IMG/VR virus record: IMGVR_UViG_2671180673_000012 | DNA: 21,281 nt | Direction: 5' to 3' (one strand) | Source: a virus | Lineage: Duplodnaviria; Heunggongvirae; Uroviricota; Caudoviricetes | Part shown: in pieces, positions 1,422-21,281 of the stretch | How the letters are laid out: the number at the start of each line of letters is the position of its first letter | Position numbering within the stretch: position 1 is the first letter of the stretch | Translations under genes and position numbers: made by a program | Notes under the pieces: model-generated | The model's database searches: none | What the model was told of the DNA's origin: nothing | The model's input: the letters and a program-made list of their open reading frames with translations, nothing else

Positions 1422-3896
1422 TTAAAAATCAGCCTGACTCGGGATCAGTTTTTGCCAGATAACTGAAACGTATTTTGCCTGGTAACGGGCGTCATCAAGT
1501 GCATTATGGCGCTCACCTTCGAATGGAATAGCCGTTCTGGNATCGAAGTCTATGGCTTTCCCCAGCTCAACGATTGTGCGTACATCGCGATCGTTGTAGT
1601 AACGCCACGGGCAGGGGATCCCCTGCCGTTCGTATGAACGGCGCAAAATCGTGTTGTCGAAGTTGGCTCCATTTCCCCAAACCTGAACAAAAAATTCACC
1701 GGAGTTTTCGTCGATAAATTCNCGCAATTGTAACAGTGCATCATCTAACGGGATTTCATCGGTCATAATGGCAGATTGCGCTTCGCGTGATTGCTTAAGC
1801 CACCATTTAATGGTGTCCCGATCAATGACTCCGCCAGCAGTTTCCAGATCGATAGTCTTACTAAATTCCGGTCCCATATCTCCGGTTTGCGGATCGAAAA
1901 ATATTGCACCTATTGAGATGATCGGGGCATCAGGATTTTTTCCCATGGTTTCAAGGTCGATCATTAGATGGTCACACGTCCTGCTGGTGGATGTGATTTC
2001 NTGATGACCGTTCACCTTAATTGNGTGATCTGCCGTCTCGCCAGTTTCATTATCGCTATNGTGATGCTGATTGCCGNCAGTGTTCTCCTTGTGTGGATGT
2101 TCAGCGCCTTCCATTTCCTCCGGATCATCTTCCTGAACTTCAACCTGATACTCTTCATCGAATGTTTCNTGGTATGTTGCGTCGCCCATCACCGCGCCAC
2201 AATCAGGGCAGTTGCCGCCGCCGGTCTGACCGCAGGCGGTGCAGACTTTTTCCACTTCCTGTTGCGCCACTGGTTCAGGCTGTTTCGTTTCTGGCTCGTT
2301 TTGTAACGCATTTGGGCTGTTTTGTTCCGCTTTCTGGCCGTTCTGTTCCGTTTCTTGCTGGTTCTGATTCACTGAATCGCGGGTTTCAATCCCCTTCACC
2401 CATTTCGGATCATTCGGGTCGCTAATCCCTGCAACAAATTCACCACGTGATACAGCAAGCAACTTATTGGCGTCAGGCTGGCTGATATTGGCTGCCTGCA
2501 TAATTTTGTTTACTTCGTCAGCGGTAACTTTTACCGGCTCTGGTTGTGCGATCGTGTCAGATGCACCAGTATTTTGTTGTGAACCTGAGTACGTGCCGTT
2601 TTTACGTGCGAAGTATTCCTCTTTTGTGATTTCCGTAGCTCCCAGGGCCAGTGCTTTTTCCAGACCAGAAAGTTTGTTTGCGCGACCGTATTTTTCGCCG
2701 TCCTTATCGGTGAAAAGGAAGTAGAACGGTCCCTCACGCTCTACAGATGGTTCGTCTTCCACTTCGCATTCGTTTTTTTCGTTGTCCGGCATTGCCGTTT
2801 CCACTGCATCAGTTTCTGGTACTGGTGACGGGAGAGTACCAGCTGTGCCCTGATTTGTTCCTTCGTCATCTTCAAACACGCCCTTGGTAGTCAGGTATTC
2901 AGTGATGTATTTGTTCAGTGCTACGGGATCTTTGTGAATGTCGATCGGACGCTCACGGACAAGGCCAAAAATAGTCTGACGGTCGTAGCGAACGGCATCG
3001 GGTTGTTTGCGCATTGATGCGGAAATGCGCTTCCAGTCTTCGCGATCTTTGTCGATAACTTCATTTTTTGCCCAGCGATGGATGCTGCCGTCAATGTTTC
3101 CGGTATCAATATCGCCAGGCCAGAGAGCGTAGGCCAGTTCTTCATCCAGCGTTTTCCATGTCTGCTTGTATTCGCGACAAATGGCGGCAGTGACTGGGTT
3201 GATTTTTCCTGCTGAGTTTTCAGTGTTCTGTTGATTGACTCTGGCGCTGGCGAGATCAACAACAGACGTGTATTTTCCAGTCTCTTTGCGCTCTGCGTCC
3301 TGCCGTTTTTTCCAGTTACGTAATTCAGCCTGAATTTCGGGCCATTTGGCACCCGGATTACATTTGTGTTTAACCCATCCGATAGCGAACAGTTTGCGTT
3401 CCGGATACATAGCGTTAATTTCAGGCGTTTTCATCAGTGCTTCAACGATATGCCCGTCAAAGGTAGCAACGTCTTCCTGCAGTAATTCCTGCGCGTCAAT
3501 CGCCATATCAACGGTGATGTTTTCACATGTACCGAACTTAACCAGGACCGCGTTCTGTACTTCAAGGGACAGCTTGTCAAAATTGACGTTCATCGGATCG
3601 GATTCTGGTTCGACCGGAATAAAGGAAGCGGATTCCTCATCCCAGCGGTTTTCCTGCATATATTCAGCATCCCAGGAATCGAGGGCAGGGCGGGGTATAC
3701 CGGGTTTATCCTCGCAGACAAGAAATTTATAAGCGCAGTCCTGAGCAGCCGGATAATGTTCCAGGAATTGCCAGTGAAATTTTGCGCGGGCGCGACGTTC
3801 ATCACCGGCTTCAATGGCAGTGGCTACAGCGACGGCACCTTCTTCCTTTATTGCCTGTTCGTCCGGAATGGCGGCGCAAATAAAGACTTTACTCAT
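1422..3896 (-). CDS. Large early protein with C-terminal DnaQ-like (DEDDh) 3'-5' exonuclease domain and central Cys4 zinc ribbon
   Basis: 824-aa ORF; exonuclease motifs near the C-terminus (MIDLETMG ... WGNGANFD ... HNALDDA); [16 protein letters not shown] zinc ribbon; GAGG RBS 9 nt upstream of ATG at 3896; several n-derived X residues. Confidence 0.8.
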
Positions 3897-3975: not shown

Positions 3976-4179
3976 TTACGGCGCTGTTTTTAATCCTGCC
4001 GGGATTTCGTTATTGTCCATGTGAATAACTTTATCGACCGGATAACAGTTGCCGGGAATTTTCTGTTCCGCTGCGGCAGCCATGCATTCTTTCATTGAGT
4101 TGTACATGCCGGTGATTGCATCAAGCGACTCACCAGTATTGAGATGTACAGTCAGAATGAGTACGAATAATGTGTTCAT
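3976..4179 (-). CDS. Small hypothetical protein with hydrophobic signal-peptide-like N-terminus
   Basis: ORF-track entry 3976..4185 trimmed to the ATG at 4179, which has a GGAGAG RBS 6 nt upstream; N-terminus MNTLFVLILTVHL; ATGA overlap with upstream gene stop. Confidence 0.5.
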   Translation of the reverse strand: MNTLFVLILTVHLNTGESLDAITGMYNSMKECMAAAAEQKIPGNCYPVDKVIHMDNNEIPAGLKTAP

Positions 4180-4364
4180 CGCCACTCTCCGAAAATACCG
4201 AGTTTAAGAAGGGCAATTCTGGAGAGTATGGAATTGTCATTCAGCAGGTAGGGTTCATATTTTCTCATATTGATTGCATCCTCGGTGAAATCCCTGTTAC
4301 TGAGCAGAACACCAATATTAAAGCACCCGTCAGACGTATTAACGTTTGGTAGTGACGTTTCCAT
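4176..4364 (-). CDS. Hypothetical small protein (62 aa)
   Basis: ATG at 4364 with GAGGA RBS 8 nt upstream; starts 10 nt after the Rha stop; stop overlaps next start (ATGA). Confidence 0.5.
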   Translation of the reverse strand: METSLPNVNTSDGCFNIGVLLSNRDFTEDAINMRKYEPYLLNDNSILSRIALLKLGIFGEWR

Positions 4365-4374
4365 TATCGCGTCC

Positions 4375-4932
4375 TCAACAATGAATTTTTAGCAATTGCT
4401 CCACAGTCATATTTTTAATTGCGCTCCGGTTTACAAGAGTCCATCCTTGTTTCTCCAGATAAAACCGGAAGGTATCCAGGGTGCAGACCATTGCGCCGTC
4501 AGGAACGGTTTCAGTGAATTTGATATTGCCGTGTTCGTCGAGACGGATAACCAGGGTGCGTCCGTCCCCGTGAATCATTTTGTCGGGAGACGGGGCGTTA
4601 TTCTGGCGCAGTTCTGCTTCCATGCGGTCGAACTCAGCAATGTATGCCTCTTTAAATGCAGCGGCTTTTTTGCCAGTGAAGCCCATCACCAGGAAAACGA
4701 AGCCGTTTTTGGTGATTTGGTACATTGGGAGTTTGCGCCCGGTTGAGTCGGTGTATTCGCTCGACACAAAATTGTGCTCAGTGAATTTTGCTGAACAGTC
4801 CAGATTGCGAATTTTATCCAACACTCGTTCGTGGCGTTTGCCAAAGAACTCGGCGATCGCAACAGACGTAGTGACAGCGCGACCATTTTCGATGGTTACG
4901 TCAGGGTGAGAAAGGGTAAGGATAGTAGCCAT
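4375..4932 (-). CDS. rha: Rha-family phage regulatory protein (antirepressor-like)
   Basis: Sequence matches the Phage_pRha pattern (AEFFGKRHERVLDKIRNLD ... FVFLVMGFTGKKAAAFKEAYIAEFDRME). The supplied ORF extends to 5229, but the internal ATG at 4932 has a GGAGG RBS 8 nt upstream and the extension runs through a terminator hairpin. Confidence 0.8.
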   Translation of the reverse strand: MATILTLSHPDVTIENGRAVTTSVAIAEFFGKRHERVLDKIRNLDCSAKFTEHNFVSSEYTDSTGRKLPMYQITKNGFVFLVMGFTGKKAAAFKEAYIAEFDRMEAELRQNNAPSPDKMIHGDGRTLVIRLDEHGNIKFTETVPDGAMVCTLDTFRFYLEKQGWTLVNRSAIKNMTVEQLLKIHC

Positions 4933-5099
4933 GATGGCAGCCTCCGCGATGAATTTGATTAACTCACCACCGAGGTTTTCCACGACCATAAGGGTGGTGA
5001 GACGTACAGGGGTGGAAATACCGGTCATCACGGAACCCGGCCAGCCTTGCGGCTGCCCTGCACGCCCCACCATAATGCGAATGTGGCTGTGCTTAACGC

Positions 5100-5124
5100 A
5101 TAAAAAAACCGCCTGAGCGCGGTT
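5100..5124 (-). terminator. Rho-independent terminator, leftward transcription
   Basis: On the minus strand: 6-bp stem AACCGC/GCGGTT, 6-nt loop, then a run of T; located upstream of the Rha RBS. Confidence 0.5.
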
Positions 5125-5775
5125 ATGCGCCGTGAATGATTTCGGGTTTCCACGCCCGGCACCCGTTTTATGAGGTGCAGGTGCACTATAATTCCACCCG
5201 TTCTGGTTTTCAATAGCTACATTCAACATTTTCTCTACCTTTCATCACCGAAGTGAACTTTGTTGATGCGGTGCCTGGTGCCTCCAGGTGACGTTAACCA
5301 GTTAACAATTAACGTCGGATACAGAGCATTCCCGTTACGCCCGTAAAAGACCGCTTGTTTTAACTGTTCCGCGTGCGCTGAGCCGCATTCACCGCATCAC
5401 AAAATTCACTTTAAAAAGGGCGGCAGAGCAGTCACGGAGTAGAACTGATACCGCCAAAAGTCACCAGAAAATTGATAACAGAGGGCGTTGCAGCGGAGTT
5501 GTCACTTAAGCGTATGGTCAACCTGACAACCCGGTGTCCTCAACGGGGGAAGGAATAACCCCGCCATACTTACCGCCGCGCCATTTCGCGGATTGCCACA
5601 ACCGGAAGCGCACGATCGAATTAAATTTAACGACGACCTATACAGAGAGACTAACTTCTCCGGGCGCTTTCGTGTTATGCCCTGACTTTTCAGGGATATA
5701 TCCTTTTCAGTAAACTGTCAGTGCCGGATTCTTATCCGTGTCCGGCGCACGCACTCTACCTCACCTGTGAATAAA

Positions 5776-6162
5776 TTAATGATTAATTGATATTTTGTTG
5801 TTTGATTCAACTTTCCCATCGGATGTGTGATGCTTTAAATCACAGGAATTAATACTGCTCGCTGTAAAATGATTTTCAAGGGGAGCTATTCGAATCCCTT
5901 TCTTTTTCATTAACAAGCCAAATCCTTTATTAATGATGTCCATTAATTCCAGGAAGTATTTTTCATGTAAATCCTGGTTATCAGAGAGCTGCTTCTCTTC
6001 GTACAGACCGATAAAGGCACGACGCACGTTACCGGATATAGTATCGATGGTTTCTTTTTCTACGGTACTCAGGTCAAGAGTCGCCAGTTGAGAGCGAACC
6101 ACATTCGATGCCATTTCCTGGAATGGTACTGGTAAATCTTTAAATTCCATCGTCAACCTCAT
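5776..6162 (-). CDS. Hypothetical protein, AT-rich gene of the early left operon
   Basis: 128-aa ORF; ATG at 6162 overlaps the upstream small-ORF stop (TGATG); alternative ATG at 6150 has a GAGG RBS 6 nt upstream; no domain recognised. Confidence 0.6.
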   Translation of the reverse strand: MRLTMEFKDLPVPFQEMASNVVRSQLATLDLSTVEKETIDTISGNVRRAFIGLYEEKQLSDNQDLHEKYFLELMDIINKGFGLLMKKKGIRIAPLENHFTASSINSCDLKHHTSDGKVESNNKISINH

Positions 6163-6314
6163 CAGTCAGTGTTTCTGGTTAACCAGCGACGCGCGCCAGC
6201 TTCAGTTTTAAACGTTTTGCTTCTGGTATACGTCATCGCGGTGAATGTGCCGTCCTGGTTGGGAAACACGCCGTACACCAGAGATTCGTTGTTGCCAAGC
6301 TCGATAGTATCCAT
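6162..6314 (-). CDS. Small hypothetical protein (50 aa), first ORF downstream of the leftward early promoter
   Basis: Hand-translated minus-strand ORF MDTIELGNNESLVYGVFPNQDGTFTAMTYTRSKTFKTEAGARRWLTRNTD; GAGG RBS 5 nt upstream of ATG at 6314; below the ORF-track length cutoff. Confidence 0.35.
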   Translation of the reverse strand: MDTIELGNNESLVYGVFPNQDGTFTAMTYTRSKTFKTEAGARRWLTRNTD

Positions 6315-6385
6315 GCTGACCTCATTTCCCCTTAACGCCGGGTGGCGGAACTAAAACCTACAGCGCCGTGCTGTTCTTGATAGAA

Positions 6386-6414
6386 ATATTAGTAACGCGG
6401 ATATTTTAAGTCAA
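6386..6414 (-). promoter_or_regulatory. Candidate leftward early promoter (pL-like)
   Basis: Minus-strand TTGACT, 17-nt spacer, TAATAT; lies between the repressor-gene terminator and the first leftward ORF. Confidence 0.45.
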
Positions 6415-6511
6415 CAGTATGGCGTATGATATTTTTGATTTGGTAACTATGTAAATGTTTTTTCAAGGGAAAAATATTAGTTATACAGCTGATTTGCAGA
6501 AGTTATGGCAC

Positions 6512-6541
6512 AAAAAAACCGACTAAGACGTCGGTTTTTTT
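6512..6541. terminator. Bidirectional rho-independent terminator downstream of the repressor gene
   Basis: 7-bp stem AACCGAC/GTCGGTT flanked by an A-tract on one side and a T-tract on the other. Confidence 0.6.
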
Positions 6542-6567
6542 GTTGTGGATGGGGTAGTGAGCGGTGG

Positions 6568-7029
6568 CTACTGGTTACGTTTCTTTAGTGCCAGCATGTT
6601 CTCGAAGGCTTCCTCGTAGAGCTTGTTTAGTCCACGTAGCTGGTTAAGGAGTTTGGCTTTTTCTGACGCAGGTAGAATCTCGAAGAGGTTAAGTAACTCT
6701 GCCTGTTCTTCATTGACCAGCCTCCATCCTTTGCCTGAAAAGTTATCATCATAAGTATCTGATGATCTTACATAATTCATTAAGTCTTTAAGGTCTTCTC
6801 GAATGTCCTCTGGTTTTACCTTTAACAGAGCCGCAAATTTTAGCGCAGCGTCGGTATTTACCGGTATCTTGCCGTTCAGATACTGGCTAACGGTGCCTTG
6901 AGATTCGAATCCCAACAACTCAGCCGCCAGCTCTTGAGTCAGCTTCAGCTCTTTTTTTCTTGCATTCCATGCGGCTTTTAAATTCTTGCTCGCTTCTGGA
7001 GTTGCAATCACTTCGCGTGTTTTTTTCAT
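6568..7029 (-). CDS. DicA-like XRE-family HTH repressor (prophage immunity repressor)
   Basis: 153 aa; N-terminal HTH (LTQELAAELLGFESQGTVSQYLNG); C-terminal region resembles DicA as recalled from memory (LPASEKAKLLNQLRGLNKLYEE); transcribed divergently from the Cro-like gene; no S24 peptidase domain. Confidence 0.8.
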   Translation of the reverse strand: MKKTREVIATPEASKNLKAAWNARKKELKLTQELAAELLGFESQGTVSQYLNGKIPVNTDAALKFAALLKVKPEDIREDLKDLMNYVRSSDTYDDNFSGKGWRLVNEEQAELLNLFEILPASEKAKLLNQLRGLNKLYEEAFENMLALKKRNQ

Positions 7030-7035
7030 ACATAG

Positions 7036-7063
7036 AGTTTATTTGTTTTACCAATATTATCAA
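7036..7063 (-). promoter_or_regulatory. Candidate repressor maintenance promoter (pRM-like), predicted leaderless transcript
   Basis: Minus-strand TTGATA, 16-nt spacer, TAAACT; predicted start site falls at or next to the repressor ATG at 7029. Confidence 0.35.
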
Positions 7064-7077
7064 AGATAGTCTGGCTG

Positions 7078-7106
7078 TTGATCTTTAAAATTAGCGGGGC
7101 TAATAT
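7078..7106 (+). promoter_or_regulatory. Candidate rightward early promoter (pR-like)
   Basis: TTGATC, 17-nt spacer, TAATAT, about 30 nt upstream of the Cro-like gene. Confidence 0.4.
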
Positions 7107-7136
7107 TTGCTCGAGGCATAACGTAGAAGGTTGGCT

Positions 7137-7412
7137 ATGAACTTAAGAGACTATTTAAAAGAGAAACATATCACCCAGCTACAGTTTGGGAAGCTAACGG
7201 GTTTATCTCAGGTGCATGTAAGTCGAGTGCTGGGGGGCTATGAAAGATTCAGCCCTGAAAAAGCATTACGTGTTGCTGAAGTAACGAATTTCGAGGTTAC
7301 ACCTCATGAACTCCGGCCTGATATTTACCCGAATCCAACCGACGGCTTACCTGTTGGATTCAAGGCTAACACACCAAATGCATCGGAGTTGATTCATGAA
7401 AATCAGGCATGA
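7137..7412 (+). CDS. Cro-like / YdaS-DicC-type HTH regulator
   Basis: ORF-track entry starts at a TTG at 7131; ATG at 7137 has a GAAGG RBS 6 nt upstream; HTH segment ITQLQFGKLTGLSQVHVSRV; first rightward gene opposite the repressor. Confidence 0.7.
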   Translation: MNLRDYLKEKHITQLQFGKLTGLSQVHVSRVLGGYERFSPEKALRVAEVTNFEVTPHELRPDIYPNPTDGLPVGFKANTPNASELIHENQA

Positions 7413-13136: not shown

Positions 13137-13194
13137 TGCAGCGGGTGCTTGAGGCTATCTGTCTCAGGCATGAACACCAAAAGGCAGATAGAGA

Positions 13195-13265
13195 AAAGCC
13201 CCAGTTAACATTACGCGTCCGGCAAGACGCTTAACATTAATCTGAGGCCATATCTATGCTCTACA
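13195..13265 (-). ncRNA. Putative Sok-like antisense RNA region (approximate)
   Basis: Inferred only from hok/sok architecture, where the antisense RNA overlaps the mok-like start region of the leader; boundaries not determinable from sequence. Confidence 0.3.
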
Positions 13266-13312
13266 CACGTAGGTTAGCCTCTTACGTGCCGAAAGGCAAG
13301 GAGAAGCAGGCT

Positions 13313-13468
13313 ATGAAGCAGCAAAAGGCGATGCTAATCGCCCTGATCGTCATCTGTTTAACCGTCATTGTGACGGCACTGGTAACGAGGAAAGACCTCT
13401 GCGAGGTACGAATCCGAACCGGCCAGACGGAGGTCGCTGTCTTCACAGCTTACGAACCTGAGGAGTAA
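13313..13468 (+). CDS. hokD: Hok/Gef-family type I toxin (51 aa)
   Basis: MKQQKAMLIALIVICLTVIVTALVTRKDLCEVRIRTGQTEVAVFTAYEPEE: single transmembrane helix plus conserved RK(D/S)LCE(V/I)R motif; AGGAG RBS 9 nt upstream; the ORF-track entry from 13256 is an in-frame mok-like extension. The hokD/relF assignment is from recalled sequence. Confidence 0.85.
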   Translation: MKQQKAMLIALIVICLTVIVTALVTRKDLCEVRIRTGQTEVAVFTAYEPEE

Positions 13469-19957: not shown

Positions 19958-20033
19958 GGCCCTTTAGCTCAGTGGTGAGAGCGAGCGACTCATAATCGCC
20001 AGGTCGCTGGTTCAAATCCAGCAAGGGCCACCA
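19958..20033 (+). tRNA. ileZ: tRNA with CAU anticodon, Ile2 (lysidine)-type by resemblance to ileX/ileY
   Basis: Manual cloverleaf: acceptor GGCCCTT/AAGGGCC, D-arm GCTC..GAGC, anticodon loop CTCATAA, T-loop TTCAAAT, encoded CCA. Confidence 0.85.
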
Positions 20034-20040
20034 TCACATA

Positions 20041-20117
20041 CCGCCATTAGCTCATCAGGAAAGAGCGCCAGCCTTCGAAGCTGGTTGCGCGGAGTTCGGG
20101 TCCCCGAAGGCGGTCCA
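20041..20117 (+). tRNA. argN: tRNA-Arg (anticodon UCG) with atypical T-loop and one acceptor-stem mismatch
   Basis: Manual fold: D-arm GCTC..GAGC, anticodon stem CCAGC/GCTGG, loop CTTCGAA, T-loop TTCGGGT, encoded CCA. Confidence 0.7.
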
Positions 20118-20130
20118 TTATCTGTATCCT

Positions 20131-20207
20131 GCGTTGTTAGCTCAGCCGGACAGAGCAATTGCCTTCTAAGCAATCGGTCACTGGTTCGAATCCAGTACAA
20201 CGCGCCA
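20131..20207 (+). tRNA. argO: tRNA-Arg (anticodon UCU)
   Basis: Manual fold: acceptor GCGTTGT/ACAACGC, anticodon stem ATTGC/GCAAT, loop CTTCTAA, T-loop TTCGAAT, encoded CCA. Confidence 0.85.
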
Positions 20208-20246: not shown

Positions 20247-20443
20247 AAATGTCTCACAATTCAGGCGGTTGACTGTTGTCTGGTTTGCGGGGAGTTTGTT
20301 AAAAGAAACTGGCATGGTGAATCCCCCTGTGCGGAGGGGCAATCAGCGAGTAGGTATATGGGATAATCGCGGATTCAGGTGCTGGTACTGAATTCACCGG
20401 GAGGCACCCGGCACCATGCAATGGCACATAGCGCCACTCTCCA

Positions 20444-20465
20444 GCCCCTCTCCGGAGGGGCTTTT
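20444..20465 (+). terminator. Hairpin terminator-like element
   Basis: GCCCCTC-TCCG-GAGGGGC followed by TTTT. Confidence 0.4.
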
Positions 20466-20656
20466 CTGTGCCGGATACATCACAGTTTCTGGAACCTTAG
20501 GTACTACAGTATCAGTCAGGGTGCTATATTTTCAGATGTGATGAAAGCCTGTCAGCAGGCAGGGCGTATCGGAAATGACCCAGTAGAGAAAACGTTGACT
20601 CAGATACCGGTGCTGAGTTACCGGGAAACCGGCATCACATGACCGCTATCCTTCCA

Positions 20657-20772: not shown

Positions 20773-21099
20773 ATGACTAAAAATACTCGTTTTTCCCCCG
20801 AAGTCCGTCAACGGGCAGTCCGTATGGTTCTGGAAAGTCAGAGCGAATATGACTCACAATGGGCGACAATTTGTTCCATTGCTCCAAAGATTGGCTGTAC
20901 GCCGGAGACTCTGCGTGTCTGGGTTCGCCAGCATGAGCGGGATACCGGGGGCGGTGATGGAGGGCTCACCACCGCTGAACGTCAGCGTCTGAAAGAGCTG
21001 GAACGTGAAAATCGTGAACTGCGCCGCAGTAACGATATCCTTCGCCAGGCTTCCGCTTATTTTGCGAAGGCGGAGTTCGACCGCCTCTGGAAAAAATGA
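20773..21099 (+). CDS. IS629-like transposase OrfA (HTH, leucine-zipper region)
   Basis: 108 aa: [19 protein letters not shown] ... [31 protein letters not shown], an IS3-family OrfA pattern. Confidence 0.85.
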
Positions 21100-21281
21100 T
21101 GCCACTGCTGGATAAGCTGCGTGAGCAGTACGGGGTCGGACCGCTATGCAGCGAACTGCATATTGCCCCGTCAACGTATTACCACTGTCAGCAACAGCGA
21201 CATCATCCGGATAAACGCAGTGCCCGTGCGCAGCGCGATGACTGGCTGAAGAAAGAGATACAGCGCGTATACGATGAAAAT
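21096..21281 (+). CDS. IS629-like transposase OrfB, N-terminal fragment (partial, runs off window)
   Basis: -1 frame relative to OrfA, starting in the AAAAAATGATG overlap; reads [30 protein letters not shown]...; no stop before the window end. Confidence 0.8.

Follow-up and report, generated by a model that had tools for sequence, protein, structure and literature searches.

What occupies a stretch of an early phage operon that appears to be empty of genes, and how does transcription reach the genes that lie beyond it? The question is raised by positions 5100–5775 of a 21,281-nucleotide (nt) stretch of viral DNA (IMG/VR record IMGVR_UViG_2671180673_000012; hereafter the window, meaning this whole stretch), for which an earlier, sequence-only reading had described an interval of about 545 base pairs (bp) free of open reading frames (ORFs), with a terminator and inverted repeats, inside a leftward operon upstream of the gene rha. 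Our answer, to which we attach a probability of roughly 0.85, is that these positions form the RNA-rich middle part of an early-left (pL-like) operon of the dicBF type, into which an RNA-controlled antirepressor module of the P1/P4/Gifsy-1 type has been inserted. The seemingly empty stretch, which carries no RefSeq RNA annotation, holds four regulatory RNAs; these would decide on the making of a cell-division inhibitor and an antirepressor, and so would bear on prophage induction and on host filamentation in clinical Escherichia coli. The principal features are as follows.

5470–5775, minus strand: leader of the DicF precursor, non-coding and with homology to the K-12 Qin ydfC-dicF spacer; hairpins at 5680–5695 and 5723–5746
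5469–5418, minus strand: DicF small RNA (Rfam RF00039), the U-run of its terminator extending to 5413
5264–5399, minus strand: STnc100-like structured RNA core of 136 nt with five helices (Rfam RF02076, below the gathering score)
5213–5185, minus strand: predicted sigma-70 promoter of IsrK, TTGAAA-17-TATAGT (10/12 consensus matches)
5178–5102, minus strand: IsrK small RNA (Rfam RF01394) with its intrinsic terminator (5124–5102)
5077–4990, minus strand: C4-type antisense RNA (Rfam RF01695)
4930–4983, minus strand: C4 target region, with box b2 (GUGGAAA, 4983–4977) and box a2 (UCAUCGCGGAGG, 4952–4941)
4375–4932, minus strand: Rha-family regulator of 185 amino acids (aa) from ATG 4932 (Pfam Phage_pRha, E 1.1e-30; PHROG Rha and anti-repressor families)

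Three of these RNAs match their Rfam models over the full model length and above the gathering score, namely DicF (71.5 bits against 48; model positions 1–52 of 52), IsrK (67.7 bits against 50; 1–77 of 77) and C4 (81.9 bits against 45; 1–87 of 87). The suggestion that the region could encode a small RNA was thus right but understated, with three families and an STnc100-like element all on the minus strand; DicF with its terminator (5469–5413), the C4-type RNA and the promoter at 5213–5185 had gone unnoticed. The terminator at 5100–5124 that had been called strong is real and does lie in the path to rha, but it is moderate rather than exceptionally strong (stem AACCGC/GCGGTT at 5124–5107 with six pairs, four of them G–C, a 6-nt loop and then a U-run), and that it ends the small RNA IsrK had not been recognised. 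The absence of genes holds for 5230–5775, where the longest ORF has 59 aa, where the identical EcPF7 genome carries neither a RefSeq coding sequence (CDS) nor an RNA annotation, and where single-base indels in the alignment with K-12 Qin break any frame, but not for 5100–5229, which lies under a RefSeq CDS for a 284-aa Rha (4375–5229). As terminator-like sites within 4300–7200 are not enriched (4 versus 3.1 expected from shuffles), the significance of the features rests on homology and not on such a scan. Much of this is known biology, as DicF, IsrK and C4 have been described already, in a mosaic that is common among E. coli genomes, and are joined here by an STnc100-related RNA; what may be new is of secondary weight, namely the pseudoknot and gene context of the latter, as well as a probable mis-annotation that affects Rha, Pfam Ash and some PHROG families.

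The evidence for the antirepressor module comes from a comparison of 12 loci (the window, Gifsy-1, P4, ST64B, several Stx phages, P88 and others). IsrK is followed by C4 in all 12, and the −35 and −10 hexamers of the IsrK promoter are likewise conserved in 12/12, including Gifsy-1 PisrK and P4, with the promoter ending 7 nt before the first base of IsrK in the window and 6–8 nt before it across the loci. The independent rha promoter that the sequence-only reading had considered is thereby supported. No LexA box was spotted by eye near this promoter, where no scan was made. The 5′ half of IsrK also matches the c4-a1b1 model (RF03163), at 25.7 bits and below its gathering score of 46.7. The recognition elements that connect IsrK, C4 and the C4 target region are the following.

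5153–5147, minus strand: box b1 within IsrK, GUGGAAA
5139–5130, minus strand: box a1 within IsrK, UCAUUCACGG
5036–5025, minus strand: C4 recognition loop a′, GUUCCGUGAUGA
5019–5012, minus strand: C4 recognition element b′, a single-stranded stretch, AUUUCCAC

Box a2 contains the Shine-Dalgarno (SD) sequence of rha, GGAGG (4945–4941), 8 nt before the start ATG (4932–4930), and the C4 loops are complementary to a2 and b2 over this ribosome-binding site; C4 and the antirepressor-type gene follow IsrK on the same strand. In the alignment of the 12 loci, a′/a1/a2 and b′/b1/b2 change together with complementarity kept, as exemplified by b′ and b1/b2 pairs such as UUUCCAC/GUGGAAA, CGCCAA/UUGGCG, UGCGAA/UUCGCA and UCUCAC/GUGAGA. 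The a′–a2 duplex of the window comprises 11 pairs including the SD and reaches −16.5 kcal/mol, versus −4.3 to −9.5 kcal/mol with the targets of other loci. Across the loci, the mean energies of cognate and non-cognate duplexes are −13.3 and −6.8 kcal/mol for a′–a2, −9.0 and −6.0 kcal/mol for b′–b2, −11.9 and −7.1 kcal/mol for a′–a1, and −8.4 and −6.3 kcal/mol for b′–b1; for the upstream a1/b1 copies, cognate pairs are favoured in 11 of the 12 loci. A further sequence downstream of C4, GGUGGUGAG (4961–4970, minus strand), hardly varies among the 12 loci; it shows complementarity to the 3′ strand of the C4 closing stem (CUCACCACC), and in the minimum-free-energy (MFE) fold it helps to sequester the rha SD. 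It is probably part of the alternative structures known from Gifsy-1.

The immI region of P1/P7 (c4-icd-ant) provides a precedent, in which an antisense RNA is processed from the same transcript as its target. C4 is cut from its precursor by RNase P and represses antirepressor synthesis; two of its loops pair with boxes a2/b2, which span the ribosome-binding site of the antirepressor operon, copies of these boxes (a1/b1) lie upstream, and the box sequences set specificity. The c4-ant logic of the window is the same (as judged from the established picture of P1/P7 and from the Rfam models RF01695 and RF03163), although no separate icd-like ORF was identified in the window and the a1b1 model stays below gathering here. 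P4 (seqA-CI RNA-seqC) shows IsrK at 60.8 bits followed by C4 at 74.9 bits, with the promoter in the same place and boxes that match each other; it differs in a spacing between IsrK and the C4 core that is about 80 nt longer, and in that P4 CI RNA causes premature transcription termination rather than (or besides) a translation block. The Gifsy-1 locus of Salmonella, isrK-orf45(STnc1160)-anrP, shares the order of promoter, IsrK with terminator, C4-type RNA and antirepressor-type gene, the SD within box a2, and complementary boxes (IsrK 79.3 bits, C4 69 bits). In Gifsy-1, PisrK makes the short IsrK, some transcripts pass its terminator, and experiments showed that the antirepressor gene downstream is driven by PisrK; the long RNA is silent in translation, and it is IsrK, acting in trans, that turns on the translation of AnrP, the antirepressor (Hershko-Shalev et al. 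2016, PMC4825925). The same authors relate IsrK to P4 seqA and the downstream RNA to P4 CI (PMC4825925). The window differs from Gifsy-1 in the sequences of the recognition boxes, in its Rha-family cargo, in an orf45-equivalent frame that is fused in-frame to rha whereas it ends in a stop in Gifsy-1, and in the location of the module, which follows DicF in an early-left operon and in Gifsy-1 lies downstream of antQ.

The operon itself is placed by its neighbours and by comparison with K-12. The window comes from a lambdoid E. coli prophage, and an interval of 2.3 kb centred on the region is 100% identical to EcPF7 and other chromosomes; at least 80% of this interval is present in 258 of 5,426 complete genomes. 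On the minus strand a repressor gene and promoter-like sites are followed by a ydfA-like DUF1391 gene, a 128-aa ORF, the region under study and the Rha-family gene, and then by dicB, DUF1482, an exonuclease gene, xis and int; for the 128-aa ORF, Pfam and PHROG gave no family of known function. Three of these flanking features delimit the setting.

7029–6568, minus strand: helix-turn-helix (HTH) repressor of 153 aa
6455–6386, minus strand: promoter-like sites
4176–4364, minus strand: DicB homologue (Pfam DicB, E 1.3e-32; annotated dicB in RefSeq)

DicF thus sits between a ydfA-like gene upstream and a DicB homologue downstream, as in the dicBF operon of K-12 (ydfABC-dicF-dicB), which is the pL-type operon of the Qin prophage. 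Shared with Qin are the order of repressor, pL-like promoter, ydfA-like gene, non-coding leader, DicF and structured spacer, as well as the downstream DicB homologue, and 5775–5263 is 91% identical to the K-12 spacer that runs from just after ydfC to just before dicB. The window differs in having the 128-aa ORF in place of ydfB and ydfC, and in carrying the IsrK-C4-rha module between the structured spacer and dicB.

The small RNA DicF depends on Hfq and acts as a repressor of ftsZ and of metabolic mRNAs. The copy in the window differs from that of K-12 by two substitutions, its terminator consists of a GC stem followed by U5 at 5417–5413, and whole-length RNAduplex pairing with the ftsZ leader gives −36.0 kcal/mol for the window and −37.6 kcal/mol for K-12, within a shuffled range that has a mean of −31 and extends to −42 kcal/mol. 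The single-base indels in the K-12 alignment fit a non-coding leader, and as a structured RNA the leader is not convincing (z-score of −1.9 versus shuffles for 5775–5410). The hairpin CCCTGA/TCAGGG noted earlier at 5680–5695 recurs in the fold, its lower stem not being kept in K-12; a second one (GCCGGA/TCCGGC) also exists but lies at 5723–5746 and not at about 5717–5738. In K-12, RNase III cuts the polycistronic transcript to give a 190-nt species, and RNase E produces the 53-nt DicF (bioRxiv 10.1101/2023.04.14.536235), and a 72-nt DicF form with an RNase III-made 3′ end has been reported. By analogy, RNase III would cut near 5606 here to yield the 190-nt species, and both leader hairpins, of which one is weakened in K-12, lie upstream of this point. 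A weak DicF-like match also occurs in a Rac-like phage (contig L014, 1363–1417, minus strand; 34.4 bits, below gathering), directly upstream of an STnc100-like element and kil, which hints that a small RNA paired with a structured leader is older than DicF proper.

Taken together, these features suggest the following course of events. Transcripts would start at a repressor-controlled promoter upstream of the ydfA-like gene, cross the conserved leader and be processed to DicF as in K-12; directly after the DicF terminator, the STnc100-related element may act as a processing or insulating leader for a downstream toxic gene. The separate, constitutive-type promoter at 5213–5185 would make IsrK, and read-through transcripts would run into the C4-type RNA and rha. 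Loops a′ and b′ of C4 would then pair with a2 and b2, and rha translation would be kept off because the bound boxes cover its ribosome-binding site. With its decoy boxes a1 and b1, free IsrK acting in trans would switch the read-through mRNA to a translatable state, as the Gifsy-1 analogy implies, and the Rha-type antirepressor could then inactivate the 153-aa repressor. The latter has an HTH domain and no S24 peptidase domain in Pfam, and because of this lack it is presumably not RecA-cleavable; induction through an antirepressor, such as the controlled Rha protein, is therefore plausible.

The fourth RNA, between DicF and the IsrK promoter, accounts for the TTAAC palindrome (5290–5316) of the sequence-only reading, which is indeed present in the MFE fold but behaves as an RNA hairpin and not as a DNA repeat. 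The parts of this fold are listed here.

5398–5390/5273–5265, minus strand: closing helix P1
about 5386–5371, minus strand: small hairpin P2, followed by a variable hairpin before P3
5316–5309/5297–5290, minus strand: P3, the TTAAC palindrome hairpin
5288–5284/5278–5274, minus strand: P4 hairpin, CCUGG-AGGCA-CCAGG
5365–5359 (CAGUUAA) with 5305–5299 (UUAACUG), minus strand: proposed pseudoknot, in which the linker behind P2 pairs with the P3 loop

Over 5406–5259 the STnc100 model (RF02076) matches at 35.6 bits (gathering score 47, E 6.7e-6, model positions 22–154 of 206); the 3′ terminator hairpin (model positions 155–206) is unmatched, so that the element is a relative of the family and not a member. 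The copies of K-12, Rac-like phages and D6 score 34–40 bits. Covariance and fold analysis, named as a check in the sequence-only reading, bore out a structured region in the form of the Rfam RNAs, co-varying helices and an MFE of −53.7 kcal/mol for 5399–5264 (z-score −3.8). An invariant 20-mer, CACCNGGAGGCACCNGGCAC (5290–5271), is found within the window only here and in a full STnc100 copy at 20283–20473; scanning with it yielded at least 120 viral contigs, which gave 119 unique elements after removal of duplicates and 38 clusters below 88% identity. MAFFT and RNAalifold (31 STnc100-like sequences) recovered P1, P2 and P4, with compensatory changes at 5/8 pairs of P1, 3/5 pairs of P2 and one pair of P4, whereas P3 and the pseudoknot were left unregistered by length variation and were parsed sequence by sequence. 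In P1, pairing is kept amid sequence change (GAUGCGGUG/CACCGCAUC, GCAUGGUG/CACCAUGC, AAUGCAGUG/CACUGCAUU and GCUGCUGUG/CACAGCAGC), and a joint alignment with true STnc100 copies shows P1, P2 and P4 to co-vary. P3 shows four to six pair types at 7 of 8 positions over the 38 clusters, with an invariant G–C base pair. Its loop is complementary to the linker directly after P2 in sequences that differ by cluster (AGACUGACAAA/UUUGUCAGUCU, GCCAGGUCG/UGACCUGGC and ACUGGAUA/UAUCCAGU); the longest complementary run averages 6.85 nt, versus 4.86 nt for non-cognate and 4.70 nt for shuffled loops, and a run of at least 6 nt is seen in 85% of cognate, 26% of non-cognate and 20% of shuffled combinations. The three TTAAC copies are therefore the two arms of P3 and a strand of the pseudoknot.

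With STnc100 (RF02076)/PasD the element shares the closing helix, AAU, a hairpin with a GCG-containing loop, and a hairpin that abuts the invariant CACC-GGAGGCACC-GGCACC hairpin; the two differ in P4, which is CCUGG/CCAGG in the window variant and CCGGG/CCCGG in STnc100, and in the 3′ terminator hairpin, in place of which an ORF start follows here. The elements as a whole fall into these two variants. Elements with CCGGG/CCCGG score 52–132 bits as true STnc100, have a terminator 35–60 nt downstream and often occur in tandem arrays beside tRNA genes, whereas those with CCUGG/CCAGG lack a terminator and are followed 33–45 nt on by the start of dicB, Rac kil or P1-type tciA; in K-12, dicB comes directly after the element. 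The full-length STnc100 copy of the window (20283–20473, plus strand; 136.3 bits) stands directly after tRNA genes Met-CAT, Arg-TCG and Arg-TCT (19958–20207), so that the same fold is found in the early-left and the late region of one prophage. Tandem arrays of three to five copies at about 250-nt spacing lie next to tRNA genes in contigs L026 (2265–3380), L114 (4349–5513 and 8357–8555) and L042 (342–1038), and an isrI match breaks up one of the L114 arrays. That the five-helix fold might be tRNA-like was rejected, as ARAGORN calls only the three real tRNAs. The function of STnc100 has been described as unknown (PMC12370729; bioRxiv 10.64898/2026.05.13.724894), and the pseudoknot, together with a terminator-less variant tied to dicB, kilR and tciA, offers a testable handle on it. 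The 3′ end of the 72-nt DicF would by calculation lie at about 5398, the first base of P1, which suggests that P1 is an RNase III substrate. We tentatively propose that the element may form a cis-acting class of its own within a widespread phage RNA fold, recruited as the immediate 5′ leader of dicB/kilR/tciA, with P1 as the RNase III site for the 72-nt DicF, although we hold this to be less probable than its opposite; its pseudoknot is absent from the structure line of the Rfam STnc100 model. If true, the element would serve toxic early genes as a device dedicated to processing or gating, or would sense a ligand or protein, and would not be a conventional Hfq small RNA.

Several points weigh against the operon-and-module interpretation or against parts of it. 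The STnc100-like match falls below the Rfam gathering score. The run-length test of the pseudoknot rests on a best-match search, and the corresponding energy test is weak (mean −9.6 versus −6.0 kcal/mol, the cognate pair being strictly best in 6/34 elements), because G+C-rich loops bind the P2 strand within the linker window; the run-length test, on a narrower linker, gave the clearer result. In the TTAAC variant, moreover, an extended P3 of 10–11 bp competes with the pseudoknot, and the link between P1 and the 72-nt RNase III product was calculated from what the literature states and does not come from a mapped site. Rha resembles Gifsy-1 AnrP only marginally (E 0.007), for which reason its antirepressor role is put forward from the family annotations. 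Finally, the 99-codon frame upstream of ATG 4932 is open, and some translation through the RNAs is possible, as is translation from ATG 5229 on read-through transcripts.

This open frame is the basis of the competing explanation that survives best, improbable as we consider it, in which 5229–4933 encodes the N-terminal ‘Ash’ domain of a 284-aa Rha and the RNA matches are secondary. RefSeq WP_000935597.1 does begin at ATG 5229, 99 codons upstream of ATG 4932, Pfam PF10554 Phage_ASH matches residues 14–109 (E 2e-16), PHROGs 995, 821 and 6928 match the 99-aa extension, the frame is open in 7/12 loci, and Gifsy-1 orf45, which overlaps the C4-like RNA, is translated (PMC4825925). The extension is, however, the conceptual translation of IsrK, C4 and the target boxes (4933–5229), the putative domain would contain the IsrK promoter and terminator, and the remaining 5/12 loci have an in-frame stop 12–33 nt before the conserved ATG. 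Substitutions in a single pairwise alignment, that with an Stx2a phage, number 22/23/43 over the three codon positions of rha itself (p = 0.008), whereas the 245 nt upstream of ATG 4932 have 13/21/20 (p = 0.35); the excess at third positions begins only at 4932, and the spread in the extension is even against the 11 other loci as well. The positions that do vary are exactly the RNA recognition boxes, which change with base pairing preserved. From this evidence we conclude that the extension is apparently not under protein-coding selection and that ATG 4932 is the likely regulated start; the annotated Rha probably starts 99 codons too early, and Pfam Ash and several PHROG families may largely model the translation of an RNA module, since the codon-position statistics argue against coding.

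The position of ATG 5229 also speaks for coding at first sight, as it coincides with the start codon of kil in the Rac-like phage L014, to which it and its upstream leader (5227–5262, minus strand) are positionally homologous. Downstream of the STnc100-like element the leader shows homology to that of kil as far as the start codon, after which the IsrK promoter begins, and from this it appears that the IsrK-C4-rha module replaced a kil-type gene right after its start codon. In Stx2a_1447 and ST64B (L004 687–1838; L005 675–1832), the annotated ‘antirepressor’ or ‘transcriptional regulator’ CDS of 383–385 aa spans IsrK and C4 and extends 360–400 nt further upstream of IsrK, with the frame open throughout.

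Slightly less probable still is that the region serves as a nut-like or put-like antitermination site which lets the early-left transcript reach rha, dicB, exo, xis and int; the sequence-only reading had named antitermination, beside an independent rha promoter, as a consequence of the need to pass the terminator. Two intrinsic terminators (DicF and IsrK) do lie in the path of the operon, an STnc100-like fold lies between them, and the hairpin CCCUGAAAAGUCAGGG at 5695–5680 resembles a lambdoid boxB by eye, but this stem is disrupted in K-12 Qin, and among the upstream early-left ORFs Pfam and PHROG identify no N-like protein, only DUF1391 and a family of unknown function. IsrK has its own predicted promoter, and the IsrK terminator of Gifsy-1 is partially read through without any antiterminator (PMC4825925); for both terminators, partial read-through is described or implied by the K-12 and Gifsy-1 literature. 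The early-left region shows neither the features of lambda N/nut nor those of HK022 put. HK022 put RNAs measure about 70 nt and have two stem-loops, with no closing helix or pseudoknot (PMC9378689), versus the 136-nt, five-helix element found here, and a put-type antiterminator was rejected on this architecture, HK022 put having been compared from its literature description only. That the TTAAC palindrome is a DNA site (an operator or recombination site) for a phage protein is the least credible possibility, for although the inverted repeat is a perfect one of 8 bp with a third TTAAC between its arms and is kept in K-12, the arms vary over the 38 clusters and yet stay complementary, their changes include G–U pairs that are sensible only in RNA, the loop co-varies with the upstream linker, and the hairpin is part of a larger co-varying fold.

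Three further observations concern other parts of the prophage. The 824-aa ‘exonuclease’ of the early-left operon (1422–3896, minus strand) carries a C-terminal Rv2179c-like 3′–5′ exoribonuclease domain (E 5e-67); no Pfam family is matched by the ~640 residues ahead of it. A sok antitoxin RNA match at 13143–13318 (plus strand, 117.1 bits) indicates a hok/sok-type toxin–antitoxin locus inside the prophage, and a match to the ALIL frameshift pseudoknot at 21054–21170 (plus strand, 120.2 bits) indicates an IS3-family insertion sequence that starts at the right end of the window.

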